From Escherichia coli (GTDB lineage Bacteria > Pseudomonadota > Gammaproteobacteria > Enterobacterales > Enterobacteriaceae): a stretch of 64,000 nucleotides of DNA. The notes beneath the pieces were generated by a model. The model worked only from the letters and a program-made list of their open reading frames with translations, ran no database searches and was not told the origin of the DNA. Position 1 is the stretch's first letter, and every line of letters begins with the position of its first letter. The translations under genes were made by a program, and so were the position numbers. Shown here in pieces: positions 7,785-40,185 of this stretch. Location of the stretch: NCBI RefSeq assembly GCF_030013595.1, contig NZ_CP122768.1. One strand, written 5' to 3'.

Positions 7785-8810
7785 TTATATTTTTTCGATC
7801 TCGACCAGATTAGTGTGCTGCGGGTTTCCCTTCGCCAGTGGTGAAGGGCGCAGAGTGGTTAGCGTATTCACACAGCCGCCATGGTCGATTTTATCGCCAG
7901 ACATATTGGCCTCGTGCCAGGCTCCCTGGCCCATAGCGCTAACCCCAGGGAGAATGCGTGGTGTTACTTTGGCTGGTAGCCGAACTTCGCCACGATGGTT
8001 AAACACCCGCACCATATCGCCGTTGGCAATCCCACGTTTCTGTGCATCTATAGGGTTGATCCACACCTCCTGACGGCAGGCTTCCTTCAGGACATCAATA
8101 TTGCCGTAGGTCGAGTGGGTACGGGATTTGTAATGGAAACCAAACAGTTGCAGTGGGAAGGTTCTACGTTCAGGGGAGTCCCAGCCTTCAAAGGTTGAGG
8201 CATAAACTGGCAGTGGGCTTATCACTTCATCTTTTTCCAGTTCCCAGGTACGGGCAATTTCCGCCAGCTTGCTGGAATAAATTTCAATCTTACCGGAAGG
8301 CGTTTTAAGTGGATTTGCCTCGGGGTCGTCACGAAATGCTTTGTAGGCGACAAAATGACCATTGGGATCTTTACGCTTATAGATACCCATTTTTTTCAGT
8401 TCGTCGTAAGACGGTAACGCCGGATCTTTGGCAAGCATTTTGGCGTACAGATGTTGTAACCATTGTTCCTGCGTGCGACCTTCTGTGAACTTTTGATAGA
8501 CGTCAGGTCCAAGACGTTTCGCGACTTCACTCAGGATCCAGTAAATCGGTTTGCGTTCGAATTTTTCGCTGGTGACTGGCTGAAGGAAAATGAGATATCC
8601 CATGTTACCTGCGTAGTCGTTAGGAATAATATCTTCCTGCTCAACGGTCATCAGGTCTGGCAGCAGAATGTCGGCATATTTTGCCGATGAGGTCATAAAG
8701 TTTTCGATGACCACAATCATTTCGCATTTCGATTCGTCCTGCAGAATTTCATGCGTTTTGTTGATGTCAGAATGCTGATTAACCAGGGTATTTCCCGCGT
8801 AGTTCCAGAT
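7785..8810 (-). pseudogene. ynfE: ynfE C-terminal fragment (gene split by insertion at 8811)
   Basis: In-frame ynfE sequence from codons I-W-N-Y (8799-8810) to stop at 7785; ORF track upstream extension 8811-8951 is element DNA read in the wrong context. Confidence 0.85.
8801..8810. repeat. left copy of 10-bp direct repeat AGTTCCAGAT flanking the ynfE insert (att core or target duplication)
   Basis: Identical 10-mer at 18242-18251; both copies encode ynfE residues IWN. Confidence 0.8.
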
Positions 8811-8876
8811 GGACTCCACTGTCAGACGGATGGACGGACTTGAAGTAGTTGACTCAACGCTACTTAAGGTCCTGAT

Positions 8877-10485
8877 ATGACTGACATTAACTATGATAAT
8901 ACTGTATATCCATCCAGCTCTTTCTCTGGGTCTCCCTATCTGTATGGGCAAGTCTACACCTCAAGTCCTGACACAAGGCTGACACAAATCAATCTACTCA
9001 GCGTAGCTAAGCCTCAGTTAGTCCGTAGAGCCAATGGTCGATATACTATCCGCTTCAGACTCAAGGGACAGACCACACCGTTTCTTTCAGTATCGACCCG
9101 AAGCACAGACAGGAGAGTAGCCACAATGCGTCAGAGAGAGCTTGCAGCCACAGCTAAGGCCTTCATGTTGGATAGGCCTGAAGTCTCACTACAGGAGCTT
9201 ACAGAGCATCTCCGGTCTATGGCTGAGCAGTTCCTGACAGACGCTAGTGACGATTACTGGAATGGACTTGAGGTCGCTACTTTGGTGGACGAGAAGTCCA
9301 ACCTGAAGGAGCTAGCCGCTACGCAAGCCTTGAGTCTGGACCAGCAGAAGGGCATAAGGTTAGCGCTTGAAGTCCTGACCGCAGCACAGCAGAGGGTAGA
9401 TACTGGTGATACGTCCAGTCTAATCAAGCTGATTGGTGGTGGCGTAAGCCAGCTTACTGATGGAGATGACAATAACCTTACTAATAACTCAACTATATGC
9501 GACTCTACGTTGATTCTGAGGAACGAGCAGGGGGTCAGCCCGCAAGTATTCACGAGAGAGCGCCAACCATCTGTAGTTTTTTCAAGCCTAGTGTCCTCAC
9601 TGCTGGCTGAGAAGGTCCAGACCCTGAAGTCCTCCAGCTACAAGGACCTGTCGTCCTCACTGAATACCGTCTCTCGGTTTCTGCCTGAAGATATGGACCT
9701 GATGTCCCGCTCTGAGTGGCTGGCAGTGAGGGACGCTATGCTGGCTGCTGAGGTGAGACCATCGACAATCAACAAGCTGCTGACCAAAGCGAAGATGTGT
9801 CTCGATTATGGCCTGATGAATGGGCAACTTGAGGGCCGCAACCCTATTGAACGGATGAAGCTGACCAAGGATACCGACTCCAAGCGCAGAGCGTTCACAG
9901 ACGAGGAGCTGGAGAGACTTCTGGTCCGTGTTGAGGCTGAGTATCAGTTCACACGACACACGGCTCACACGACCTCTGAGGCCCGTAGATGGGCGTCTCT
10001 GGTGTCTGTGGTCACTGGCGCGAGGTCTGCTGAGGTCTGCCACCTGACTAAACGTGACGTTGTAACCTTGGACAATGGACTGGTCTGTATCGACATCAAT
10101 GAAGATGGGGACGGGAAGTCTGTGAAGAACAAACATTCAGTCCGACTTGTGCCGTTAACCGATGGGGCCTGTGGTTTCAGCCTGAAGTCCTTCCTCAAAT
10201 GGGTAGACACTCAGCCTGCTGATGGTCCCCTCTTTGGTATGACTCCGAGTGCCTACTCTAGTTGGTTTAACTCTAGGGTCCTGACTGAGGCCCTAGGAGA
10301 CGCTGAGAACGTTTCTCCACAGTCTGAGACATTGGCTGGCGACCCGAATGAAAGAGCGTGGAGTCAATCTGGTGGACGCTCAAGGCATCTTAGGTCACAG
10401 CAGTCAGTCCATTACGTATGACCTGTACGGGAAAGGACACGCTGTTGGTAGGCTGGCTGAGGTGCTGAAGACAGCTTTACTTTAA
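8877..10485 (+). pseudogene. tyrosine recombinase/integrase, apparently frameshifted near 10297-10330
   Basis: N-terminal arm-binding-like segment (GRYTIRFRLKG...STRSTDRRVA); catalytic domain residues in frame A up to 10421; conserved HSLRHWLATRM...LGHSS...YDLYGKGH C-terminus is in the +1 frame ending at 10485. Confidence 0.65.
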
Positions 10486-10644
10486 GTAGGAAGACCCAAG
10501 GTGGAGACCATATACGGCTTGATGGTTGAGACCTTGGGTCACTGAAGTCTGACTGAAGTTAGGGAGGGTGATAATAATCATAATCCCTCCTGACTATAGG
10601 CCCACTGGTTCGCCTTCGGCTGTCCGACTCTAAGTCTGTCTGTG

Positions 10645-10776
10645 GTCTTATTTAAACTGGTTCCCTAACTCAGGTCCTCCAACTTGGTGTCTTATTTAAA
10701 CTGGTTCCCTAACTCAGGTCCTCCAACTTGGTGTCTTATTTAAACTGGTTCCCTAACTCAGGCCCCTCCAAATTTC
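10645..10776 (+). repeat. 44-bp tandem direct repeat, about 2.7 copies (candidate iterons/origin or regulator binding array)
   Basis: Unit GTCTTATTTAAACTGGTTCCCTAACTCAGGTCCTCCAACTTGGT at 10645-10688 and 10689-10732, third copy diverges after about 30 bp. Confidence 0.8.
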
Positions 10777-10792
10777 GTTGTCTGTCAGCGAC

Positions 10793-10818
10793 TTAAATAT
10801 CCCCTCACCTTAGAAGAG
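10793..10818 (+). promoter_or_regulatory. phage single-subunit-RNAP-type promoter P1 (class A, CCCCTCAC upstream)
   Basis: TTAAATATCCCCTCACCTTAGAAGAG; T7-supergroup -17..+6 architecture, predicted +1 G at 10813. Confidence 0.55.
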
Positions 10819-10833
10819 TTTAGGGTTCAGACC

Positions 10834-10857
10834 CTTAACTATCACCTTAGGAGAGAC
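10834..10857 (+). promoter_or_regulatory. phage single-subunit-RNAP-type promoter P2 (class B, AACTATCAC upstream)
   Basis: CTTAACTATCACCTTAGGAGAGA; predicted +1 G at 10850; 45 bp upstream of ORF 10902. Confidence 0.55.
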
Positions 10858-10901
10858 GGGCCGTCCTCCACCCAATCAAAACCTTAAGAGGAGGACCATA
10901 C

Positions 10902-11402
10902 ATGGCTATTAAAATTCAGTGCTACACCGAGTCCGACAATGCGGCTTTCTTCGGTGACGATTCCGACCTCCAGCACCAGCTACCAGCACCGACATATGAC
11001 GAACCTAAGGCCCGCACAGGTAAGCCTCCTGTGGTCATCGACAACCGGGCTGTCCGTGCGTGGCTGATTGAGACTGGGTGTCTCTCCTATACGCAGCTTG
11101 TTGAGGCGTACCCGTGGGCTGACGATGTGTTCACAGGACTCTCACGGGCTACCAGTGGCGCTGTCGGTGCTGGACTCCCGGTATCTAAGGCGTACCTGTT
11201 CTCTGCCTTATATGGCACCAACGACATCTTCTCCCGTAACACAGCCAAATCCTACGCTGACATCACTGGGCGTTCACCGTCTCCTCGCTACCTGCGCCAC
11301 GTCAATAGCGTGCTTCAGGCTACGGCTGTGAATCTGGCTAAGGTTCTGAAGGACCGAGGGGATTTCACATGGTGGGATTACAACGATCAGTGCCTGTCCT
11401 GA
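10902..11402 (+). CDS. hypothetical protein, first gene downstream of P1/P2
   Basis: 166-aa ORF with strong RBS AAGAGGAGG; no family recognised. Confidence 0.6.
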   Translation: MAIKIQCYTESDNAAFFGDDSDLQHQLPAPTYDEPKARTGKPPVVIDNRAVRAWLIETGCLSYTQLVEAYPWADDVFTGLSRATSGAVGAGLPVSKAYLFSALYGTNDIFSRNTAKSYADITGRSPSPRYLRHVNSVLQATAVNLAKVLKDRGDFTWWDYNDQCLS

Positions 11403-11424
11403 GAGCCGCGCCAGCTCTGGGCTG

Positions 11425-11448
11425 GAATACCCCCTCACTATAGGGACA
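11425..11448 (+). promoter_or_regulatory. phage single-subunit-RNAP-type promoter P3 (class A; T3-like CC at -11/-10)
   Basis: GAATACCCCCTCACTATAGGGACA; 13/13 match to T7 consensus from -9 to +4 (CTCACTATAGGGA). Confidence 0.7.
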
Positions 11449-11451
11449 CCC

Positions 11452-11477
11452 CCTAAACTATCACTATAGGGGGGACC
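11452..11477 (+). promoter_or_regulatory. phage single-subunit-RNAP-type promoter P4 (class B)
   Basis: CTAAACTATCACTATAGGGGGGACC; TCACTATAGGG core. Confidence 0.65.
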
Positions 11478-11712
11478 AACCTTGCCTCTGCTTCTGATGC
11501 GTCAGAACACGCGAGGTCCTCCCGACATTAAGTATTCTCCTAAGTAATCAAGGCCCGTGACCGCCTCTGACAGACCTCCTGTATCGACCTCCAGCTCGTT
11601 AGCGTTCTTTAGTCGTCTCGGTTAGTAGGTAACCGGCTCATTTAAACCGTCTGGTCTGTTTCCTCCGGCTCTACAAAAATAATGTCCATCATTTTTTAAT
11701 GGACACTATCGT

Positions 11713-12360
11713 ATGAAACACCGGACCTGGATCACTGAAGCTTTACGTCTTCACTTTGAAGAACATTTACCCCGGGTTGTGGCCGGGCGTCGCCTGGGTG
11801 TACCAAAATCAACAGTTTGTAGTATGTTCGTGCGCTTTCGGAGAGCTGGCCTTTCGTGGCCTTTGCCCGCAGGCATGTCGGAGCAGGAACTTGATGCCTG
11901 CCTTTACGGACAATTTTCCACGGTACCAGTCGTACGTCCTGAAAGCACCGTTATATCCGAAGCCCCCGTGGTAAAAAAACGTCCCCGGCGGCCCAACTTC
12001 CCTTATGAGTTTAAAATCGCCTTAGTGGAGCAGTCACTGCAGCCCGGAGCCTGTGTGGCGCAGATCGCCCGGGAAAACGGAATCAACGATAACCTGCTCT
12101 TCAACTGGCGCCATCAATACCGGAAAGGTGGCCTGCTGCCTTCCGGAAAAAATATGCCGGCACTGCTTCCCGTGACGTTAACGCCGGAGCCGGATAATAA
12201 AATCCCGGCCCCCGCACAGGAACCAGAGCAGATAAATACACCGTCCGACAGTCTGTGTTGTGAGCTGGTTCTGCCGGCCGGAACTCTCAGGCTTAAAGGT
12301 AAACTGACGCCGGCGTTATTACAGACACTTATCCGCGAAATAAAAGGGAGCAGCCACTGA
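11713..12360 (+). CDS. IS66 accessory protein (orf1/TnpA-like)
   Basis: 215 aa, first ORF of IS66 triad; identical to copy-2 ORF. Confidence 0.8.
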   Translation: MKHRTWITEALRLHFEEHLPRVVAGRRLGVPKSTVCSMFVRFRRAGLSWPLPAGMSEQELDACLYGQFSTVPVVRPESTVISEAPVVKKRPRRPNFPYEFKIALVEQSLQPGACVAQIARENGINDNLLFNWRHQYRKGGLLPSGKNMPALLPVTLTPEPDNKIPAPAQEPEQINTPSDSLCCELVLPAGTLRLKGKLTPALLQTLIREIKGSSH

Positions 12361-12707
12361 TGATATCTCTCCCTGCAGGTTCGCGTATCTGGCTGGTTGC
12401 AGGTATCACCGATATGCGAAATGGCTTTAACGGCCTGGCATCAAAAGTTCAGAACGTCCTGAAGGATGACCCGTTCTCCGGACACCTGTTCATCTTCCGC
12501 GGACGCCGGGGTGACCAGATAAAAGTGTTGTGGGCTGACAGTGACGGACTGTGCCTCTTCACCAAACGCCTGGAGCGGGGCCGCTTCGTCTGGCCAGTCA
12601 CCCGTGACGGCAAGGTGCACCTTACTCCGGCTCAGTTATCCATGCTTCTTGAAGGTATCAACTGGAAGCACCCGAAACGAACGGAACGCGCTGGAATCCG
12701 CATATAA
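12360..12707 (+). CDS. IS66 Orf2 (TnpB-like)
   Basis: 115 aa, overlapping start with preceding stop (ATGA); typical IS66 orf2. Confidence 0.8.
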   Translation: MISLPAGSRIWLVAGITDMRNGFNGLASKVQNVLKDDPFSGHLFIFRGRRGDQIKVLWADSDGLCLFTKRLERGRFVWPVTRDGKVHLTPAQLSMLLEGINWKHPKRTERAGIRI

Positions 12708-12726
12708 CCCGTTGTAAAGTGAGGAT

Positions 12727-14298
12727 ATGGACACCTCACTTGCTCATGAGAACGCCCGCCTGCGGGCACTGTTGCAGACGCAACAGGACACCATCCGCCA
12801 GATGGCTGAATACAACCGCCTGCTCTCACAGCGGGTGGCGGCTTATGCTTCCGAAATCAACCGGCTGAAGGCGCTGGTTGCGAAACTGCAACGTATGCAG
12901 TTCGGTAAAAGCTCAGAAAAACTTCGTGCAAAAACCGAACGGCAGATACAGGAAGCACAGGAGCGAATCAGCGCACTTCAGGAAGAAATGGCGGAAACGC
13001 TGGGTGAGCAATATGACCCGGTACTGCCATCCGCCCTGCGCCAGTCTTCAGCCCGTAAACCGTTACCGGCCTCACTTCCCCGTGAAACCCGGGTTATCCG
13101 GCCGGAAGAGGAATGCTGTCCTGCCTGTGGTGGTGAACTCAGTTCTCTGGGATGTGATGTGTCAGAGCAACTGGAGCTTATCAGCAGCGCCTTTAAGGTT
13201 ATCGAAACACAACGTCCGAAACAGGCCTGTTGCCGGTGCGACCATATCGTACAGGCACCAGTACCTTCAAAACCCATTGCACGCAGTTATGCCGGAGCGG
13301 GGCTTCTGGCCCATGTTGTCACCGGGAAATATGCAGACCATCTGCCGTTATACCGCCAGTCAGAAATATACCGTCGTCAGGGAGTGGAGCTGAGCCGTGC
13401 CACACTGGGGCGCTGGACAGGTGCTGTTGCTGAACTGCTGGAGCCGCTGTATGACGTCCTGCGCCAGTATGTGCTGATGCCCGGTAAAGTCCATGCTGAT
13501 GATATCCCCGTCCCGGTCCAGGAGCCGGGCAGCGGTAAAACCCGGACAGCCCGGCTGTGGGTCTACGTCCGTGATGACCGTAACGCCGGTTCACAGATGC
13601 CCCCGGCGGTCTGGTTCGCGTACAGTCCGGACCGGAAAGGTATCCATCCACAAAATCACCTGGCCGGTTACAGCGGTGTGCTTCAGGCCGATGCTTACGG
13701 TGGTTACCGGGCGTTATACGAATCCGGCAGAATAACGGAAGCCGCGTGTATGGCTCATGCCCGGAGAAAAATCCACGATGTGCATGCAAGAGCGCCCACC
13801 TACATCACCACGGAAGCCCTGCAGCGTATCGGTGAACTGTATGCCATCGAGGCAGAGGTCCGGGGCTGTTCAGCAGAACAGCGTCTGGCGGCAAGAAAAG
13901 CCAGAGCCGCGCCACTGATGCAGTCACTGTATGACTGGATACAGCAACAGATGAAAACACTGTCGCGTCACTCAGATACGGCAAAAGCGTTCGCATACCT
14001 GCTGAAACAGTGGGATGCACTGAACGTGTACTGCAGTAATGGCTGGGTGGAAATCGACAACAACATCGCAGAGAACGCCTTACGGGGAGTGGCCGTAGGC
14101 CGGAAAAACTGGATGTTCGCGGGTTCCGACAGCGGTGGTGAACATGCGGCGGTGTTGTACTCGCTGATCGGCACATGCCGTCTGAACAATGTGGAGCCAG
14201 AAAAGTGGCTGCGTTACGTCATTGAACATATCCAGGACTGGCCGGCAAACCGGGTACGCGATCTGTTGCCCTGGAAAGTTGATCTGAGCTCTCAGTAA
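12727..14298 (+). CDS. IS66-family DDE transposase (Orf3/TnpC)
   Basis: 523 aa with leucine-zipper-like N-terminus, CxxC...CxxC zinc motif and DDE region. Confidence 0.85.
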
Positions 14299-14582
14299 AT
14301 ATCAATACGGTTCTGACGAGTCGCTTACGTTAGTAGCTCGTCTACTCACTACATTGGCTTAAGTCTATCACCGCTCACCATCTGGAGTCCTTACAGCTCG
14401 TCCTGACATGCGGTCTCACCTTATATGCACATGGAGAACATGGCCACTCCAGACCAACACTAATCAACATTAACCCTATTCACTTTCGTTAAGCATTTTT
14501 TGGTGGGTCCGTTTGGATGCATTGAATAGGTGCGGACTCCACGTGGAGACAGAAAGTGCTTTACTAAAGGAGCATCCTTTAT

Positions 14583-14972
14583 ATGACTATTAAATCCATC
14601 GTTATCAACGGTAAGACCATCCTGTCTACACCTAACGCCATCAATGAGGGTGTCTGGTTCGACATGCTTGAGGTCCATCAAGCTGCTGGCTTGCCTGCTA
14701 ACAAGACGTTCTCACAGTGGCGCAGCCGACAGTCTCGTGCATTAGAAGAGGCTGGAGAGGTGTCGTTTGACAGTGTACAGAAGACCCTGTGTGGCAGCTT
14801 TGTGGCAGTGCTGGCCTACCTTATGTGGGCGGACCTTACTCTCTGGCTGGCGGTGGTTCGTTACGTTGCGTCTGAGACTATCGGCGTCCTGCCTGACCGC
14901 TTCAAGTCTATCGACGGTGATAACCCCGAGTTAGAAATGTCAGAGGATAACAGCGAGTGGGAGGACTTCTAA
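14583..14972 (+). CDS. KilA-N domain protein (short)
   Basis: 129 aa; N-terminal motif WFDMLEVHQAAGLPANK...WLAVVRYV resembling KilA-N; strong RBS AAGGAG. Confidence 0.55.
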   Translation: MTIKSIVINGKTILSTPNAINEGVWFDMLEVHQAAGLPANKTFSQWRSRQSRALEEAGEVSFDSVQKTLCGSFVAVLAYLMWADLTLWLAVVRYVASETIGVLPDRFKSIDGDNPELEMSEDNSEWEDF

Positions 14973-14973
14973 G

Positions 14974-15714
14974 ATGACCATGAGCCAGCTTGAAGCATTA
15001 CCTATCGTCATCGAGGGTCATTCATTCATCTGCAACGACCAGCGCATGTGGAACCTGAACGAGATTCACCGAGTGTTAGGTCTTCCAGCAAGCAAGATGC
15101 CGTCTGAGTGGAATAACAAGATTCGCACACAACTTGACCGCTCCGGAAATTTCCGGACCGTGAATGGTGACGGCGGTGGTACATGGGCGACCGAGGCTGG
15201 GACCGTGGCTTATGCTATGTGGGTCTCTACAGATTTCTACCTGATGGTCATCAATGCTTTCATCTTTATGCGTAACGACGCAATCGTCCGAGAGCGTGTA
15301 GCGGTCAAACAGGCTGACGAGGCTAACGCTAACCTCTCCATCGCAGCACCTAAGGCAGACATCTTTGACGGTCGTCTGACCAATGGTGGCTCTGTTCCGT
15401 GGAACTGGGCGTGTAAATCTTTGGGTCTTGCCCCGATGAAACTGAAAGAGGGCTTGAAGCGCTCCGGTAAGTTCGTCCAGAAGTGGAACCCTGACAGTTA
15501 CGCCGACGAGCTTCGACCTCAGGAGAAGGCGTTCAGTATTGGACTATTCGTCACTAAGTCAGTCATGGGTAAAGACACATGGCAGGTGACAGCTAAAGGC
15601 TACGCATGGATGCAGGGGAACGCCCAGAAGTGGAGAGAGCTAATAGCTGATGGTGACCGCTTAAAGGCTGCTGAGCGTCGAGCACAGAAGCGTCTTAACC
15701 GTGGAGGTAAGTAG
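14974..15714 (+). CDS. KilA-N domain protein with C-terminal extension
   Basis: 246 aa; MWNLNEIHRVLGLP...NGDGGGTWATEAGTVAYAMWVSTDFYLMVI typical of KilA-N; start 2 nt after preceding stop. Confidence 0.6.
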   Translation: MTMSQLEALPIVIEGHSFICNDQRMWNLNEIHRVLGLPASKMPSEWNNKIRTQLDRSGNFRTVNGDGGGTWATEAGTVAYAMWVSTDFYLMVINAFIFMRNDAIVRERVAVKQADEANANLSIAAPKADIFDGRLTNGGSVPWNWACKSLGLAPMKLKEGLKRSGKFVQKWNPDSYADELRPQEKAFSIGLFVTKSVMGKDTWQVTAKGYAWMQGNAQKWRELIADGDRLKAAERRAQKRLNRGGK

Positions 15715-15716
15715 TC

Positions 15717-15941
15717 ATGGCTATGATTGACCCTCGTACACCTATCGGCAAAGCGACCCTTCGTTACCGTGGTCTGCCTACACGTCATCTGCTGTCCCTG
15801 CTGAGACTTGGAGTCGAAGACCCCGAACGCCCGTACTACAGTCGAGACGAGCTAATAGCTATGTTGGTGGACCGTGATTTAGACAATCAGTTACGCCGAG
15901 CCTTTGCGAAGTCTAGCGCAGCTAGGGAACTGGAGTCCTGA
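15717..15941 (+). CDS. hypothetical protein
   Basis: 74-aa ORF, start 3 nt after preceding stop, same strand. Confidence 0.45.
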   Translation: MAMIDPRTPIGKATLRYRGLPTRHLLSLLRLGVEDPERPYYSRDELIAMLVDRDLDNQLRRAFAKSSAARELES

Positions 15942-16146
15942 ACCTTATGGGGCAGAAAAACCGCCGCATAAACCTATCGTCTGCTGACCGAAGTTTCGAC
16001 GCATTGAGCCAGACGGAAAAGTTTTCCTGCTGGTAAACCACCTTAATTTAAACACCTTTTGAGAATGACCGATGCGGGGAGACCCGTAGGCATAACTGTG
16101 TCTGCGATACCGATAGTTCTCACCTTCTCAATAGGAGTACTACCTT

Positions 16147-16638
16147 ATGTTATTCAACAACAACGACTGGAAACTATCAGTCACCGACATCAATCCCTAT
16201 GAAAATACTGTGAGTCTGGACGGTCAGTCCTATCCGCTGTCTCTGGCGATTAAGACCCTGATTCCGGGCTACCTGTCAGGCTTACCGTCCACCAGCCGCG
16301 AGGCGATGGAGTTACTGGAAGCTCTGGCTGAAGCTGGCGTGTCCATTGGCAACTTCTTCAGTAATGACCTGATGACCGCCTATGGTCGCCGCCAGCAGAA
16401 CAAGCGAGCCGAAGCTGAGCGTATTGCTAAAGAGCAGCGCATTCAGGCTGAGCGTATGCGTGAAGAGAACATGACTGATGCAGAGTGGCAGAAAGAGCTA
16501 CAGCGCCGTGAACAGGTCAAAGCTGAACGCCGGACCTATGGTGAGCACCTCCGCAGTGCTACCCATTCCGCTGGGCGCTCCCGTGCTTCTATGGTCGCTG
16601 ACATTGAGTCCACGGACAACTGGATGGACAGCCTCTAA
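16147..16638 (+). CDS. hypothetical charged coiled-coil protein (scaffold-like?)
   Basis: 163 aa; RBS AGGAG; C-terminal K/R/E-rich helical segment. Confidence 0.5.
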   Translation: MLFNNNDWKLSVTDINPYENTVSLDGQSYPLSLAIKTLIPGYLSGLPSTSREAMELLEALAEAGVSIGNFFSNDLMTAYGRRQQNKRAEAERIAKEQRIQAERMREENMTDAEWQKELQRREQVKAERRTYGEHLRSATHSAGRSRASMVADIESTDNWMDSL

Positions 16639-16704
16639 GACACAGACACACAAGTGGTCCTGACCTGATGTCGGGACCCACAGTATCCAAACTAATTTAG
16701 GAGA

Positions 16705-17700
16705 TTGATTATTATGACGATTAAAGACGCTTTCCAGTTCGGCATTGAGCCAGTACGTATCAGCGACACCGACAACATTCAGATTAACGAAGGTTTGCCA
16801 ACTAACGCAGACCCGCAGGTCTATGCCCTCCAGTTAGCTAAGACGGTTAAGGCTATGCTGAACGGTGTACTTAAAGACGCTCAAGAGAACATCCCGTTCC
16901 CTGTAGAAGTCCTGCCGACCCGCAATAGCCTGCCTACTCCAATCATTGCTCACACTCTGGCTGATCGCTCTGTGGTCGTTCCTGTCCGTGGTGGTAAGCG
17001 ACCTGAAGTCGTGACCGTTCCGTCTGGACAAGAAATCGTGGTCGAACCAATCGAGCAGGCTATTCTCATCTCTGAGCAGACCAAGCTCTGGGACGCCAAG
17101 TCATCCACCGGATTCACTCAGGGCACACTTCAGCAGGACGCTATGAACATCTGTGAGAATGTGGTCCGTACCATCAACGCTCGCATGGTCGACGTTCTGG
17201 AGTCCTCCAAACTGTTGAAGACCGTAGAGCTGCCAGTCCTGACTGGAAGCCTGACCACTAAGGCAGACGCTATCATGGACGCTCTGTTTGAGAACACCGA
17301 GTCCTCTTTCGGCTCTGAAGTGTCTGATTACGGCATCATCGCCCATGAGTCCCAACTGAAAGCGCTGTCCCGTCTGGCAGCTAAACAGGGCTTCTCTGGT
17401 GGAGACGCTATCGTGGATATGCTGGGTACCGACATCGCCTATTACAACGGTGAAGACAAGGGTGTATTCATGCTGGCTAAACGCTTCACGGCCCTGAGCT
17501 TCGGCTGCTTCCGTCACGACGGTGAGAATATTACGGTCGTCCTTTCACGTGATGGCGACTCTCAGTCCCACGACTTGGAAATCCTCGGTAAAGTGTTCGT
17601 TGTCGCTGAAGCTGCTACGACCATCAAGATGGGCACTGGCTCAGCTACTGCCGTCCTGCCTGTAGTCAAACGCCTGAAGTTCACCAAGACCGAAGCGTAA
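16705..17700 (+). CDS. hypothetical 331-aa protein (possible virion/structural protein; unverified)
   Basis: Long ORF with RBS AGGAG directly downstream of coiled-coil ORF; no motif recognised. Confidence 0.5.
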   Translation: MIIMTIKDAFQFGIEPVRISDTDNIQINEGLPTNADPQVYALQLAKTVKAMLNGVLKDAQENIPFPVEVLPTRNSLPTPIIAHTLADRSVVVPVRGGKRPEVVTVPSGQEIVVEPIEQAILISEQTKLWDAKSSTGFTQGTLQQDAMNICENVVRTINARMVDVLESSKLLKTVELPVLTGSLTTKADAIMDALFENTESSFGSEVSDYGIIAHESQLKALSRLAAKQGFSGGDAIVDMLGTDIAYYNGEDKGVFMLAKRFTALSFGCFRHDGENITVVLSRDGDSQSHDLEILGKVFVVAEAATTIKMGTGSATAVLPVVKRLKFTKTEA

Positions 17701-17844
17701 GACCAATGGGTAAGAGGTAAGTCTGGACTGAATATCAGCAGGACTTCAGGTGGTGGCCTGTCACTGTGATTAACTAACTACGGTCTGGACCAATGGTCTG
17801 GGCCTTATTACTGGTATGGTAGTATACAGGCGAAGGAGGACCCA

Positions 17845-18000
17845 ATGTCTATGACTTCCGCAGACCTAAGGTCCCTCCTGACTCTGGTCTATAAACTCGT
17901 GTTCCTCTCTGTGGGTCTCTACATGGTTCTCTCTGGTCGACTCGGTGTGGATGTGTTCGACACTCTGTCTAAGGCTGTGGGTGGACTTCTAGGTCCTTAG
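17845..18000 (+). CDS. small hydrophobic protein (51 aa, one predicted TM helix)
   Basis: ATG 17845 with RBS GAAGGAGG; LVFLSVGLYMVLSG hydrophobic core; below ORF-track length cutoff. Confidence 0.4.
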   Translation: MSMTSADLRSLLTLVYKLVFLSVGLYMVLSGRLGVDVFDTLSKAVGGLLGP

Positions 18001-18241
18001 GTTTGGACTCACAGTGGGACCGATGATTTCTGACAGAAAAATGTGAATGACCATCTAATACATTAAGCCAGCAGACTTCCCCCCATAGTCCCGCCTCAAG
18101 TCCAGACCGAGGCCACCGGGGGTCCTGACCAGCCGTCTAGACATCCCGTCTAATGACACAAGTCTGGCACAAAGCCTGACACAAAGTCCTTGACTCAATG
18201 CAGGACCTCAGGCCTACTAAGGGTCCGCTTCAAGTCCTTGA

Positions 18242-18251
18242 AGTTCCAGAT
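18242..18251. repeat. right copy of 10-bp direct repeat AGTTCCAGAT
   Basis: Identical to 8801-8810; ynfE sequence resumes here. Confidence 0.8.
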
Positions 18252-19652
18252 GAACTTAATGGGCACATCCAGTTTATCTTTGCCGCGGACGCCGTCGCGG
18301 ATTGCCGTCATTTGCGGGCCATGATCGATAGCATCCGTCCAGCTGAAGCAGGAGATTGACGTTTTGACCGGATTATCCAGCACCGGTAGGCGTTCTATGG
18401 TAATGGTATAGGTCGATTCACGCGCGCCACTATTCCCGCCGCTGATGCCGACATTGCCCGTCAAAATAGGCAACATAGCAATAGCGCGTGCGGTCAGCTC
18501 ACCGTTTGCCTGGCGTTGCGGCCCCCAGCCCTGGCAGATATAAGCGGGTTTTGCTGTGCCAATTTCACGCGCCAGTTTGATGATACGGTCCACCGGGATA
18601 CCGGTAATTTGCGAAGCCCACTGCGGCGTTTTCGCTGTTTTATCGTCACCTTCACCAAGAATATAGGCTTTATAGTGACCATTTTTTGGTGCATCTGCGG
18701 GTAAGGTTTTTTCGTCATAGCCGACGCAGTATTTATCAAGAAAAGGTTGATCAACGAGATTTTCGTTAATCAATACCCAGGCAATACCCGCAACCAGCGC
18801 GGCATCGGTGCCCGGGCGAATAGGAAGCCATTCGTCTTCACGACCGGCAGCCGTATCGGTATATCGCGGATCGATAACAATCATTTTTGCGTTCGATTTC
18901 TCGCGCGCTTTTTCAAGAAGATAAGTGATGCCACCACCGCTCATGCGGGTTTCTGCCGGGTTGTTACCAAACATCACGACCAGCTTGCTGTTTTCAATAT
19001 CCGTGGTGCTGTTGCCATCATTACTGCCGTAGGTGTAGGGCATGGCACAGGAAATTTGCGCGGTGCTGTAGGAGCCATACTGGTTGAGTGAGCCGCCGTA
19101 GCAGTTCATCAGGCGTTTGACCGCCGAGGCGGATGGCGAAGAGCGGGTCATATTGCCGCCAACAATCCCCGAAGAGTACTGAATATATACAGCCTCATTG
19201 TCATATTGTTCGACGGTTTTTTTCAGGCTACTGGCGATAGTATCCAGGGCTTCATCCCAGCTAATCCGTTCGAATTTGCCTTCGCCGCGTTTGCCCACGC
19301 GTTTCATTGGGTAATTCAAGCGGTCGGGATGATTAATACGCCGACGGATGGAGCGACCGCGCAAACAGGCGCGTACTTGATGATTGCCATACTCATCGCT
19401 GCCGGTGTTGTCAGTTTCCACCCAGGTCACTTCATTATCTTTAACATGCAGACGAAGTGCACAGCGGCTACCACAGTTGACGGAACAGGCACCCCAGACC
19501 ACTTTCTCGCTGGCCTGTTGTACTGCTGCCGCTGCACTGCGCAGGGTGAACGGTAAAGAAAAACCGCCTGCAGCCAGCGCCAGAGAACCTATCGCGGTAG
19601 ATTTAACGAGTGTTCTGCGGCTGATGCCCACCATTTGTTCATTTTTGGACAT
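18243..19652 (-). pseudogene. ynfE: ynfE N-terminal fragment (Tat signal, catalytic subunit) ending at insertion junction
   Basis: 470 ynfE codons from MSKNEQMVGISRRTLVKS to IWN at 18243; ORF then runs 16 codons into element DNA to a stop at 18195. Confidence 0.85.
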
Positions 19653-25012: not shown

Positions 25013-25801
25013 TTAATTTTTCATTGCTTCGTTATGGGGCATGGTTGGGGCAAACTCGCTTAACTGTGTATTTAACAAAGCTACCTGTGCATTATTGTTT
25101 TCAGACATCCATTTTCCGTATACCTGAAATACCATTTGCGCATCTGCATGGCCCATCTGGTTTGCTATAAATGCCGGGTTAGCACCAGCTGTCAGCGACC
25201 AGCAGGCATAAGTATGTCTCGACTGATATGATTTTCGATGGCGGAGTCCGGCACGTTTTATCGCTGCGTCCCACATCTGCCTTATTGAGTCAACGGTAAA
25301 ATGGTCACCATAATTTTTTACTCTCGCTGACACTTCAGGTTGAAAAACAAAGGTGCATTTATGTTTTTCTGTTCTGCCATACTCTCTGAGGTGAACATCA
25401 ATGATATGCTCTTTGCTCAGTCTCGTTAATGTCATCTGACTCCGGAGAGCGTCGATTGCTGGCTTAATAAGATGAATGACCCGATTGGTTCCCGCCTGTG
25501 TTTTTGGTACCGTGAAACGGTCTTTTGCTAAATTTCTCCTGATCATCATTGTTCCATTTTTCAGATCTATGTCCTCCCATCCAAGTGCACACAGCTCACC
25601 AGGGCGAACGCCAGTATAAACAGAAACACACCATAAATTTTTGGCTTGCTGATTTCTGCACGCATCGATAAGACGGATGAATTCCTCCCGCGAAAGAGGA
25701 TCCGGAATGGTTCTTGATTCCTTTAATGGCGAGATCCCCTTAAACGGGTTATCTGCCAGGTAACCGTTATCAACACCAAACTGGAACACGGCGTTAAGAT
25801 T
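25013..25801 (-). pseudogene. prophage tyrosine integrase, C-terminal catalytic part (gene split by IS66)
   Basis: R...HxxR...Y catalytic domain (LRHRKSYQSRHTYA, MGHADAQM..VYGKW); reading frame continues to the IS junction at 25801. Confidence 0.85.
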
Positions 25802-25831
25802 GTAAGCGACTCGTCAGAACCGTATTGATAT

Positions 25832-27403
25832 TTACTGAGAGCTCAGATCAACTTTCCAGGGCAACAGATCGCGTACCCGGTTTGCCGGCCAGTCCTGGAT
25901 ATGTTCAATGACGTAACGCAGCCACTTTTCTGGCTCCACATTGTTCAGACGGCATGTGCCGATCAGCGAGTACAACACCGCCGCATGTTCACCACCGCTG
26001 TCGGAACCCGCGAACATCCAGTTTTTCCGGCCTACGGCCACTCCCCGTAAGGCGTTCTCTGCGATGTTGTTGTCGATTTCCACCCAGCCATTACTGCAGT
26101 ACACGTTCAGTGCATCCCACTGTTTCAGCAGGTATGCGAACGCTTTTGCCGTATCTGAGTGACGCGACAGTGTTTTCATCTGTTGCTGTATCCAGTCATA
26201 CAGTGACTGCATCAGTGGCGCGGCTCTGGCTTTTCTTGCCGCCAGACGCTGTTCTGCTGAACAGCCCCGGACCTCTGCCTCGATGGCATACAGTTCACCG
26301 ATACGCTGCAGGGCTTCCGTGGTGATGTAGGTGGGCGCTCTTGCATGCACATCGTGGATTTTTCTCCGGGCATGAGCCATACACGCGGCTTCCGTTATTC
26401 TGCCGGATTCGTATAACGCCCGGTAACCACCGTAAGCATCGGCCTGAAGCACACCGCTGTAACCGGCCAGGTGATTTTGTGGATGGATACCTTTCCGGTC
26501 CGGACTGTACGCGAACCAGACCGCCGGGGGCATCTGTGAACCGGCGTTACGGTCATCACGGACGTAGACCCACAGCCGGGCTGTCCGGGTTTTACCGCTG
26601 CCCGGCTCCTGGACCGGGACGGGGATATCATCAGCATGGACTTTACCGGGCATCAGCACATACTGGCGCAGGACGTCATACAGCGGCTCCAGCAGTTCAG
26701 CAACAGCACCTGTCCAGCGCCCCAGTGTGGCACGGCTCAGCTCCACTCCCTGACGACGGTATATTTCTGACTGGCGGTATAACGGCAGATGGTCTGCATA
26801 TTTCCCGGTGACAACATGGGCCAGAAGCCCCGCTCCGGCATAACTGCGTGCAATGGGTTTTGAAGGTACTGGTGCCTGTACGATATGGTCGCACCGGCAA
26901 CAGGCCTGTTTCGGACGTTGTGTTTCGATAACCTTAAAGGCGCTGCTGATAAGCTCCAGTTGCTCTGACACATCACATCCCAGAGAACTGAGTTCACCAC
27001 CACAGGCAGGACAGCATTCCTCTTCCGGCCGGATAACCCGGGTTTCACGGGGAAGTGAGGCCGGTAACGGTTTACGGGCTGAAGACTGGCGCAGGGCGGA
27101 TGGCAGTACCGGGTCATATTGCTCACCCAGCGTTTCCGCCATTTCTTCCTGAAGTGCGCTGATTCGCTCCTGTGCTTCCTGTATCTGCCGTTCGGTTTTT
27201 GCACGAAGTTTTTCTGAGCTTTTACCGAACTGCATACGTTGCAGTTTCGCAACCAGCGCCTTCAGCCGGTTGATTTCGGAAGCATAAGCCGCCACCCGCT
27301 GTGAGAGCAGGCGGTTGTATTCAGCCATCTGGCGGATGGTGTCCTGTTGCGTCTGCAACAGTGCCCGCAGGCGGGCGTTCTCATGAGCAAGTGAGGTGTC
27401 CAT
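25832..27403 (-). CDS. IS66-family DDE transposase (Orf3/TnpC)
   Basis: 523 aa identical to 12727..14298 product. Confidence 0.85.
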
Positions 27404-27422
27404 ATCCTCACTTTACAACGGG

Positions 27423-27770
27423 TTATATGCGGATTCCAGCGCGTTCCGTTCGTTTCGGGTGCTTCCAGTTGATACCTTCAAGAAGCATGGATAACTGAGC
27501 CGGAGTAAGGTGCACCTTGCCGTCACGGGTGACTGGCCAGACGAAGCGGCCCCGCTCCAGGCGTTTGGTGAAGAGGCACAGTCCGTCACTGTCAGCCCAC
27601 AACACTTTTATCTGGTCACCCCGGCGTCCGCGGAAGATGAACAGGTGTCCGGAGAACGGGTCATCCTTCAGGACGTTCTGAACTTTTGATGCCAGGCCGT
27701 TAAAGCCATTTCGCATATCGGTGATACCTGCAACCAGCCAGATACGCGAACCTGCAGGGAGAGATATCAT
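27423..27770 (-). CDS. IS66 Orf2 (TnpB-like)
   Basis: 115 aa identical to copy 1. Confidence 0.8.
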   Translation of the reverse strand: MISLPAGSRIWLVAGITDMRNGFNGLASKVQNVLKDDPFSGHLFIFRGRRGDQIKVLWADSDGLCLFTKRLERGRFVWPVTRDGKVHLTPAQLSMLLEGINWKHPKRTERAGIRI

Positions 27771-28417
27771 CAGTGGCTGCTCCCTTTTATTTCGCGGATA
27801 AGTGTCTGTAATAACGCCGGCGTCAGTTTACCTTTAAGCCTGAGAGTTCCGGCCGGCAGAACCAGCTCACAACACAGACTGTCGGACGGTGTATTTATCT
27901 GCTCTGGTTCCTGTGCGGGGGCCGGGATTTTATTATCCGGCTCCGGCGTTAACGTCACGGGAAGCAGTGCCGGCATATTTTTTCCGGAAGGCAGCAGGCC
28001 ACCTTTCCGGTATTGATGGCGCCAGTTGAAGAGCAGGTTATCGTTGATTCCGTTTTCCCGGGCGATCTGCGCCACACAGGCTCCGGGCTGCAGTGACTGC
28101 TCCACTAAGGCGATTTTAAACTCATAAGGGAAGTTGGGCCGCCGGGGACGTTTTTTTACCACGGGGGCTTCGGATATAACGGTGCTTTCAGGACGTACGA
28201 CTGGTACCGTGGAAAATTGTCCGTAAAGGCAGGCATCAAGTTCCTGCTCCGACATGCCTGCGGGCAAAGGCCACGAAAGGCCAGCTCTCCGAAAGCGCAC
28301 GAACATACTACAAACTGTTGATTTTGGTACACCCAGGCGACGCCCGGCCACAACCCGGGGTAAATGTTCTTCAAAGTGAAGACGTAAAGCTTCAGTGATC
28401 CAGGTCCGGTGTTTCAT
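27770..28417 (-). CDS. IS66 accessory protein (orf1/TnpA-like)
   Basis: 215 aa identical to copy 1. Confidence 0.8.
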   Translation of the reverse strand: MKHRTWITEALRLHFEEHLPRVVAGRRLGVPKSTVCSMFVRFRRAGLSWPLPAGMSEQELDACLYGQFSTVPVVRPESTVISEAPVVKKRPRRPNFPYEFKIALVEQSLQPGACVAQIARENGINDNLLFNWRHQYRKGGLLPSGKNMPALLPVTLTPEPDNKIPAPAQEPEQINTPSDSLCCELVLPAGTLRLKGKLTPALLQTLIREIKGSSH

Positions 28418-28501
28418 ACGATAGTGTCCATTAAAAAATGATGGACATTATTTTTGTAGAGCCGGAGGAAACAGACCAGACGGTTTAAATGAGCCGGTTA
28501 C

Positions 28502-29016
28502 TTAAGATTTGTCATGTAATTATTTACAGTTACAGCCGATCTACCTGGTTGTGTAACAATATAGTTACTTTTGGGGCTCTGGTATCCAGTCAGTAGCTCT
28601 TTACGAACCTCCAGTAATTTTTCTTTATTAATCGATGAGGCAAGATTTTTTTCACCGATTATGCTCAGGATATTTTTGATGACGGCACGGTATGTGTTGA
28701 GTGATGTTTTTGCGACTTCAGTTTCTTTCAGTGCCAGAAATTTTTCAGCCAGTTCTTTTATGGTTAAATCTTGTCGGGTCTCACCAAATTTTTCCAGATT
28801 GCGTGAGGAGGGAAACTGTTTTGCATAGTCGAAAACACCAGTTTTTATTGCGTAACAAACAGAGGCGCGTAGCTCACCTGCAACGCGCCTGTTTTTTGCT
28901 GTGTCAGGAACCCCCAGGTTTTCCCTGACTCTTACGCCTTTATAAACAAACCAGATACGTAATTTCCCTCCATGGTTTTCCACGCCTGTCGGATATTTCA
29001 TTTCAACTTCTCTCAT
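28502..29016 (-). pseudogene. prophage tyrosine integrase, N-terminal part
   Basis: 172-aa N-terminal arm/core-binding region ending at IS66 junction. Confidence 0.8.
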
Positions 29017-39792: not shown

Positions 39793-40185
39793 AACCAAGA
39801 TCGATTCGGTTGAGTGCATATCCATTCATAGGGTAGATTCTTAAGTCGCGTTTCTGGTGTTCATTTTCGGGTGGTTTGTTACTTGTTTTACCGGGGATAT
39901 GCCAGAAACGCGCTGAGTCAGTCTGGGCGGTGCGCGTAATGAGGCGTTATGGTAAATAGCCTATGCTAATGTCCGCTAAGAGCAAGAAGCGGAAGTTGGC
40001 AGTTTTGTGGACTGTCCCCACAAAAGTGACTACAGAAATAGTTGCAATTCATAATTGATCATGGGTTGTCAGTTAAACTCGTGGCGATTTAAATAGACTA
40101 ATTGGGAGTGCGTCCATTACTTATATCTTGTAATGTTAACTATCAGAAATGATACAAAGATAATATGTCTTTAAAGAAAAGGCTG

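Follow-up and report, generated by a model that had tools for sequence, protein, structure and literature searches.

ISCro1, a member of the IS66 family, is a common mobile element of E. coli (near full-length copies in 1492 of 5426 complete genomes), and an insertion of it is in itself an ordinary event. The described case closest to the one reported here comes from the afa/dr region of ST131, in which an ISCro1 of 2,824 bp sits in regulatory, non-coding DNA ahead of an operon and has a measurable effect, a decrease of 2.5 log2, on downstream transcription by the host RNA polymerase, that is, the sigma-70 enzyme (PMC8764528). On a broader scale, IS erosion of E. coli prophages and genomic islands is a familiar process, with strain-specific IS, pseudogenised integrases and immobilised elements as its marks. 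In the 64,000-nucleotide stretch of E. coli DNA analysed here (the window), an ISCro1 of 2,700 bp likewise lies in regulatory non-coding sequence, with an operon downstream. However, the polymerase at issue would in this case be a phage enzyme with a single subunit, on which intervening DNA has much less effect. The island that received the insertion has parallels of its own among phage satellites (PICI, cf-PICI, the satellite P4, PLE and PICMI), which are also small integrase-bearing islands with genes apparently switched on by an infecting phage; cf-PICIs share with it the possession of an own HK97-fold capsid gene, and PICMIs the minimal gene set.

The IS (copy 1) is complete and occupies 11629-14328 on the + strand. 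Its terminal inverted repeats are imperfect and start with GTAA, with IRL at 11629-11649 (GTAACCGGCTCATTTAAACCG) and IRR at 14308-14328 (GTAAGCGACTCGTCAGAACCG) matching at 14 of 21 positions, and it is flanked by an exact 8-bp target site duplication (TSD), GTTAGTAG, whose left copy (11621-11628) is present once in IS-free relatives and is exactly repeated on the right (14329-14336). The chance of an 8-bp repeat exactly abutting both ends is about 1.5e-5, and all six other ISCro1/IS66 insertions examined have TSDs of 8 bp. The three genes have the same orientation (+ strand): tnpA (11713-12360; IS66 accessory protein with HTH, NCBIfam NF038385 at 296 bits against a cut-off of 150, Pfam HTH_Tnp_1), joined through an ATGA overlap to tnpB (12360-12707; IS66 Orf2-like accessory protein, Pfam PF05717 with E = 4.7e-40, NCBIfam NF033819 above cut-off), and tnpC (12727-14298), which encodes the 523-aa DDE transposase (DDE_Tnp_IS66 PF03050, E = 2.5e-103; NF033517 at 478 bits against a cut-off of 180) with additional zf-IS66, LZ_Tnp_IS66 and IS66_C domains in Pfam. 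The family calls are based on curated Pfam and NCBIfam cut-offs, which all three ORFs pass. Copy 1 therefore shares with the ISCro1/IS66 family a size of 2.7 kb, the order tnpA-tnpB-tnpC with a DDE transposase, the GTAA ends and the 8-bp TSD, and the reading of this segment as an IS66 copy with its TSD, made earlier by a model from the letters only (the sequence-only reading), is correct in its exact boundaries. The name ISCro1 is taken from RefSeq/PGAP labels and not from the ISfinder reference sequence, the DNA being 99.9-100% identical to elements labelled 'IS66-like element ISCro1 family'. Apart from the insertion site, two features set it apart from the common ISCro1: an extra T in the run 11687-11692, close to where tnpA is annotated to start, and a substitution (A at 13251) within tnpC. 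The second copy in the window has both. The extra T is located in a short repeat and could be a sequencing error.

The host island, of about 6.7 kb, is integrated in ynfE, and its 11-bp att core (AGTTCCAGATG) is conserved at both ends (attL 8801-8811, attR 18242-18252). In the literature found, only the targeting of ynfE by an integrative element is on record (PMC7192596). The insertion would have enlarged the island, 6733 bp without it, to 9441 bp. The site is within a conserved, untranslated leader, of which the 5' part (11469-11628, + strand; alignment of eight relatives) remains next to the phage-type promoters P3 and P4 and the 3' part (14337-14582, + strand; alignment of relatives) is now 2.7 kb away from them. 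The IS starts 160 bp downstream of the P4 +1 and ends 255 bp before the start codon at 14583, in agreement with the distances first noted (150 bp after P4, 255 bp before the KilA-N gene). No ORF of at least 25 aa spans the insertion site, so none is broken. An alignment of eight islands places the target within a segment of about 25 bp that some relatives lack (found in the window, L002, L009 and L010; missing from L001, L005, L007 and L011).

A comparison with related islands marks the insertion as lineage-specific. Among about 150 of them that were examined, not one has this IS at the site; the sequence is contiguous across it in 130 of 130 related E. coli genomes, the IS is absent in all 10 further loci and in 4 IMG/VR loci, and the junction between IS and leader was found in no complete genome of the E. 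coli set searched. The exact empty site with one GTTAGTAG, represented by the 28-mer GTCGTCTCGGTTAGTAGCTCGTCTACTC, is present in 6 of 10 loci. One could take the IS for an integral part of the element, or an ancestral one, as it lies inside it and as IS66-family elements occur in several family members. The probability of this is practically nil, as the exact empty sites rule it out, no relative examined has it here, and the other insertions in the family lie elsewhere and have different TSDs. The sequence-only reading had called the insertion a secondary event, had proposed a search for IS-free copies and had named a position shared by all relatives as the finding that would speak for an integral part; IS-free copies exist, several with the unduplicated site, and the view of a secondary event stands. 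We consider it most probable, judging from these comparisons, that ISCro1 moved recently, within this lineage, by simple transposition into a non-coding, indel-tolerant spot of the leader.

A second copy of ISCro1, identical to the first and inverted, is found at 25802-28501 on the - strand, where it interrupts the neighbouring prophage's integrase gene and has its own TSD, TTAAGATT. The identity of the two copies and their two shared private variants argue for a recent insertion. Two identical inverted copies 11.5 kb apart could also form a composite transposon, or could bound an inverted 11.5-kb segment in which the order of promoters and genes was rearranged. Each copy, however, keeps its own matching 8-bp duplication (GTTAGTAG and TTAAGATT, respectively), which an inversion by recombination would have swapped, and a composite transposition would leave one common outer duplication; moreover, both sides of the IS are colinear in gene order with IS-free relatives. 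The copy-specific TSDs rule out either arrangement, which we regard as extremely improbable.

The operon downstream of copy 1 (14583-18000) has genes for KilA-N proteins, for a scaffold-like protein and for an HK97-fold capsid protein. The KilA-N-type genes (14583-15714, + strand; Pfam and alignment) code for a 129-aa KilA-N-like product followed by a 246-aa protein with KilA-N and ANT/KilAC domains. The latter passes the Pfam KilA-N threshold, while the former has no Pfam match and aligns to the KilA-N region of its neighbour (28% over 90 aa, E = 5e-9), which makes the earlier label of 'first KilA-N gene' acceptable. They are followed by a gene for a 163-aa charged, helical protein (16147-16638, + strand), putatively scaffold-like by its position, and by the gene for an HK97-fold major-capsid/encapsulin-like protein (16705-17700, + strand; probable ATG at 16714). 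The AlphaFold2 model of the capsid-like protein (pLDDT 86.4, pTM 0.80) gave 231 PDB and 203 BFVD matches in Foldseek at E<1e-3, essentially all of them to capsid or encapsulin shell proteins. These last two genes are the conserved core module, and many genomes match these two only. No RNA polymerase gene is present in the island, and PADLOC on the island proteins returned nothing meaningful.

The tyrosine integrase gene of the island (8877-10478, + strand) has lost 2 bp at about 10313 (TCTC in place of TCTCTC), by which the ORF ends at 10421 with the catalytic LHSLRH...GH...Y segment out of frame. The frameshift precedes catalytic box II and the tyrosine and is private to the window, the gene being intact in 16 of 16 relatives; the frameshifted integrase is not on record by exact look-up. 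It is predicted to disable this copy of the island as well, and the loss of the catalytic C-terminus by a private mutation lends independent support to the proposal, made from the IS, that the element is decaying in this host. The deletion falls in a short repeat and could also be a sequencing error.

Such damage is frequent in the island family. Annotated IS are present in 23 of 60 spread-sampled members, at positions other than that in the window, ISCro1 has inserted independently at least five times, at separate positions and each time with a TSD of its own, and a different IS66-family element is found in the island of another genus. In a large STEC lineage, a co-oriented ISCro1 is located between Kayfunavirus-type promoters (L027, 4174 and 4732) and the scaffold-like and capsid genes. 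The recurrence of IS between promoters and capsid genes in this family would be explained if the IS had been selected, either by uncoupling the capsid/KilA-N operon from its promoters or by making the island too big to package, with benefit to the host or neutralisation of a costly element. We find this improbable. The insertions are scattered over the integrase, the 44-bp repeats, small ORFs, the leader and the region downstream of the capsid gene; they occur in both orientations, four of five in + orientation not being significant (binomial p about 0.19), and no target motif for ISCro1 was common to the seven insertions compared. Accumulation of IS is the neutral expectation for dispensable, horizontally acquired DNA. 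The ISCro1 in the leader is thus one case of the frequent IS erosion of this island family and not a functional part of the element; it shows no essential difference from ordinary IS erosion in E. coli, and copy 2 in the prophage integrase fits the same pattern.

A position weight matrix from 10 promoters of the Kayfunavirus phiYIO1-1 (shuffle maximum 14) identified only two sites in the whole 64-kb window, P4 (score 30.5) and P2 (24.4), and none downstream of the IS. P4 (CCTAAACTATCACTATAGGGGG, 11452-11473, + strand) has its predicted +1 at about 11469 and a core, TCACTATAGG (11461-11470), that is invariant in eight relatives. It shows 19/19 identity to several phiYIO1-1 promoters, and K1F-like phages have four to six matching promoter sites in each genome, some of them annotated 'promoter'. 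The putative promoters P4 and P2 are matches to the K1F-like phage (Kayfunavirus) consensus far above chance. P3 (AATACCCCCTCACTATAGGGAC, 11426-11447, + strand) is a phage-type promoter-like site with a score of only 10.1 in this matrix. For promoters of the P1/P3 type (CCCCTCACTATAGGGA) no cognate phage was found; 11 viral contigs matched, and the best of them (L013, three matches) was rejected, as it resembles neither T7-like phages nor the island and has its genes on the opposite strand. In DNA or protein, the island resembles phages only in the promoters and one 32-bp stretch, and tblastx against phiYIO1-1 was negative.

Since the IS separates the phage-type promoters from the gene block, any P4 transcript must cross it, and this much of the sequence-only reading, which spoke of P3/P4 transcripts crossing 2.7 kb of IS, holds for P4. 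Its further claim that the insertion probably silences the operon finds no sequence support. The IS is co-oriented with the operon, and the downstream genes retain their own Shine-Dalgarno sites. On the + strand between the P4 +1 and the first ATG there are three T-runs of at least 4, none after a stable hairpin, and no terminator-like hairpin with T-run was detected over the 3.1 kb across the IS. T7-type polymerases have high processivity, normally covering more than 10 kb, and most host terminators have little effect on them. From this processivity and the lack of a recognisable + strand terminator, read-through of the IS by the phage RNA polymerase appears plausible: a T7-like enzyme starting at P4 would most likely cross the 2.7 kb, the operon, instead of being shut down, would be expressed later and from a longer mRNA, and tnpABC would become phage-induced. 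The opposite reading is that the IS acts as a polar block, with P3/P4 transcripts ending or decaying inside it and the KilA-N/capsid operon silenced. The operon has no other Kayfunavirus-type promoter, the + strand shows no sigma-70-like promoter from the end of the IS to the first gene, a single class II T7 pause core, ATCTGTT, is present at 14261, and the ST131 insertion is a precedent for reduced transcription by the host polymerase. We nevertheless judge a polar block unlikely, because of the co-orientation and terminator-free + strand described above, the insensitivity of T7-type polymerases, and the absence after ATCTGTT of the T-run that class II termination by T7 RNA polymerase requires. 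To our knowledge, it is not well established what constitutes a class I/II signal for K1F-like polymerases, and the ATCTGTT at 14261 might at least cause a pause.

The whole leader (409 nt, ~410) is as conserved as the coding regions and folds with z = -2.6, that is, it is moderately structured, so it may have a cis function (as origin, processing site or packaging signal) that would be destroyed by splitting its halves. No Rfam match was obtained on the leader or the island.

Islands of this family measure ~6.5 kb; 312 of the 5426 complete E. coli genomes contain them, other Enterobacterales have them too, and they may form an undescribed satellite-like family. A more specific proposal, which we put forward tentatively and at less than even probability, is that these islands have their genes directly under promoters of virulent T7-like phages (K1F-type in E. 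coli, SP6/K11-like in another genus), carry their own HK97-fold capsid, and would be minimal Autographiviridae satellites with a capsid gene or, alternatively, decoy-capsid defence islands. From known satellites, the island, known here from sequence alone, would differ by induction through promoters for a virulent T7-like phage polymerase instead of anti-repression, and it differs by having no portal, terminase, primase or replication gene. In the searchable literature, nothing matching was found on satellites of Autographiviridae with T7 promoters or a capsid gene. The predicted attP junction was absent from the viral and metagenome contigs searched; a 6.4-kb Logan contig considered as an excised or packaged form turned out to be a chromosomal fragment, and each of the four IMG/VR loci appears to be a proviral call in a chromosome.

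As genome erosion, the IS insertion is routine and of little consequence, whereas its context of K1F-type promoters and an HK97-fold capsid gene in 312 E. coli genomes may represent a new element aimed at T7-like phages. If so, the IS would be a natural marker of such an island family, and a co-oriented IS66 element behind phage promoters, as in the window and the STEC lineage, would be expressed by the helper polymerase and could hitch-hike on the island. The window copy, with its 2.7-kb foreign insert in the leader and its broken integrase, is unfit as a reference for the element. Pairs of IS-bearing and IS-free copies would serve as natural constructs and controls for the coupling of P4 to the capsid operon and for a cis function of the leader. 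IS-free island copies with an intact integrase are found, for example, in strains CD45 and EC2 and in GCA_051413655.1.

A complete 2700-bp insertion sequence occupies 11629-14328 and has three genes on the + strand, tnpA (11713-12360; NF038385 match, IS66 accessory protein), tnpB (12360-12707; PF05717 and NF033819 matches), and tnpC (12727-14298; DDE_Tnp_IS66, E = 2.5e-103; NF033517, 478 bits), all three products of which far exceed the curated cut-offs for IS66-family proteins. Its termini are imperfect inverted repeats that start with GTAA, and a perfect 8-bp direct repeat, GTTAGTAG, flanks it at 11621-11628 and 14329-14336. RefSeq-labelled ISCro1 elements are 99.9-100% identical to it at the DNA level, and near full-length ISCro1 occurs in 1492 of 5426 complete E. 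coli genomes. This copy (copy 1) is a known IS with known behaviour, and its novelty is limited to the insertion site. The coordinates, the TSD, and the distances given by the sequence-only reading are accurate, with ~160 bp between the transcription start of the phage-type promoter-like site P4 and the IS, and 255 bp from the IS to the next ATG.

That reading had also called the insertion a secondary event, and this is confirmed. When 1 kb of the window, with the IS plus one TSD copy taken out, was used as query, all 130 matching complete E. coli genomes gave one unbroken match across the junction. In a search with a query spanning the real left junction, no complete genome covered it. The exact empty site, ...GTCGTCTCGGTTAGTAGCTCGTCTAC... 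with a single GTTAGTAG, is found in strain CD45. The IS is likewise absent from 10 of 10 further loci encoding an identical 166-aa upstream protein, six of which carry the exact 28-mer empty site, and from four IMG/VR loci.

A second ISCro1 (copy 2, 25802-28501), inverted with respect to copy 1, identical to it, and flanked by its own duplication, TTAAGATT, splits the lambdoid-prophage integrase of a neighbouring prophage into an Arm-DNA-binding N-terminal part (28498-29016, - strand) and a catalytic part (25013-25789, - strand). Compared with the ISCro1 copies of ES5, RM10410, and STEC, both copies in the window have T6 instead of T5 at 11687-11692, near the annotated tnpA start, which costs tnpA its first 10 annotated codons, and, at 13251 within tnpC, A instead of G (coordinates of copy 1; copy 2 agrees at the equivalent positions). 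Because the copies are identical and have these two private differences in common, one was probably derived from the other within this lineage. Inversion or composite transposition via the two copies is ruled out, since each has kept its own matching TSD.

The host island is 9441 bp long, or 6733 bp once the IS and a single TSD copy are subtracted. An 11-bp direct repeat, AGTTCCAGATG, marks its two ends (8801-8811 and 18242-18252), and it splits ynfE, a gene previously listed as interrupted by an integrative element (PMC7192596). The first gene of the island, from 8877 onward, encodes a tyrosine integrase, and between this and P1/P2 lie three non-coding 44-bp tandem repeats (10645-10776; two identical, one 80% identical). 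These may be iteron-like or packaging-related; an ISCro1 of strain RM10410 is inserted at the start of the same repeat region. Then follow P1 and P2, a 166-aa ORF, P3 and P4, a ~410-nt leader, and an operon of two KilA-N-type genes, a 74-aa ORF, genes for a 163-aa charged helical protein and a 331-aa protein, and a 51-aa ORF. The 331-aa protein is unrecognised by sequence-based libraries. Its structure is predicted with confidence (pLDDT 86.4, pTM 0.80), and essentially all structural matches of the model (231 in PDB and 203 in BFVD at E<1e-3) are HK97-fold capsid or encapsulin shell proteins. A terminator-like hairpin at 17782-17804, immediately 3' of this capsid gene, is placed relative to it as T-phi is after gene 10 in T7.

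The promoter-like sites P1 to P4 (cores at 10805-10814, 10842-10851, 11435-11444, and 11461-11470) stand as one pair before each transcription unit. Several promoters of phiYIO1-1, a K1F-like phage, agree with P4 (CCTAAACTATCACTATAGGGGG) at 19 of 19 bases, and many Kayfunavirus genomes contain 4-6 sites each that match it, some of these annotated as promoters. A weight matrix from ten phiYIO1-1 promoters, scanned over the 64-kb window and shuffled windows, gives 30.5 for P4 and 24.4 for P2, with no more than 11 in the rest of the window and a shuffle maximum of 14. P2 is a CACCTTAGG variant that phiYIO1-1 uses once, at 10207. The paired sites differ in their upstream half (CCCCTCAC... in P1 and P3 vs AACTATCAC...), which makes the island look set up for polymerases of two specificities. 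Of the two types, AACTATCAC alone is assignable, to Kayfunavirus; a cognate phage for CCCCTCAC was not found among viral contigs. The P4 core is unchanged in eight relatives, and a diverged island of another genus has SP6/K11-like ACACTATAG promoters instead. We also noticed that 10567-10598 is a 32-bp exact match, inverted, to the right end of phiYIO1-1 (40046-40077), just 3' of its last promoter and 5' of a gene 19.5-like ORF, which suggests island-phage DNA exchange or cis-signal mimicry.

The IS target lies within a ~25-bp leader segment that is present in the window, CD45, and the relatives' loci L009 and L010, and absent from L001, L005, L007, and L011. Since some relatives dispense with this segment and no ORF of at least 25 aa spans the site, the insertion occupies a tolerant spot of an otherwise well conserved leader (92-100% identity among variants differing in both flanking modules). 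The leader has a predicted fold with z = -2.6 and no Rfam family match, and splitting it in two could destroy some cis function. At 14369-14385 its sequence, TATCACCGC, is the same as that of a lambda operator half-site, probably by coincidence.

Phage-polymerase transcripts must indeed cross the IS to reach the operon, as had been claimed, because the weight-matrix scan of the 64-kb window gives no promoter of Kayfunavirus type 3' of the IS, and no sigma-70-like promoter was found in front of the operon. That the IS silences the operon is unproven; for host polymerase, an ISCro1 in the afa regulatory region lowers downstream transcription (PMC8764528). Here the IS and operon have the same orientation, the + strand between the P4 start and the first ATG has only three T-runs of at least 4, none preceded by a stable hairpin, and a single ATCTGTT at 14261 is without the T-run required for class II termination. 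T7-type polymerases are fast, highly processive, and indifferent to most host terminators. We infer that transcription most likely reads through: a phage polymerase starting at P4 would cross the IS into the operon at the cost of ~10-15 s more and an mRNA longer by a 2.7-kb translated insert.

The conserved 163-aa plus capsid module is found in 312 of 5426 complete E. coli genomes, and an annotated IS lies beneath the match in 23 of 60 evenly sampled family members. At least five ISCro1 insertions are independent, each with its own TSD: those of the window, ES5 (within the 166-aa ORF, reversed), RM10410 (two), and a large STEC lineage (L027, E. coli 2003-3014, 4143-10387), where a co-oriented copy sits between K1F-type promoters and scaffold-like/capsid genes. 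In another genus, L024 (CP142904.1, 2382-9065) carries a different IS66-family element of 2437 bp, which has TACTGTGG as its TSD and lies between duplicated SP6/K11-like promoters. Because the positions are scattered and have no target motif in common, we regard the insertions as the usual decay of DNA that the host can do without; selection for island inactivation is a minor alternative.

The sequence-only reading, in which "secondary" stands and "silencing" does not yet, is also right on "decaying", and this independently of the IS. The integrase (8877-10478) has a 2-bp deletion at ~10313 (TCTCTC to TCTC) that shifts the frame just 5' of the LHSLRH...GH...Y catalytic segment; it is private to the window, the gene being intact in 16 of 16 relatives checked. 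As judged from sequence, the island is immobilised here, unless the deletion, which is located in a short repeat, is a sequencing error.

The island (8812-18252, minus 11629-14336) looks like a member of an undescribed family, with a tyrosine integrase in ynfE, K1F-type promoters, KilA-N/ANT genes, and the 163-aa plus HK97-fold capsid module as its traits. Members occupy several E. coli chromosomal sites and occur in Citrobacter, Rouxiella, and another genus, with modules mosaic among them. No literature description of an integrase-bearing island that combines K1F-type promoters with an HK97-fold capsid gene of its own was found, nor were excised or packaged forms among viral and metagenome contigs, nor any known defence-system match for its proteins (PADLOC). 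It may be a satellite, a decoy-capsid defence, or a remnant, and is of more interest than the IS insertion. The IS adds 41% to its size, which, speculatively, would matter if a small capsid must hold the island.
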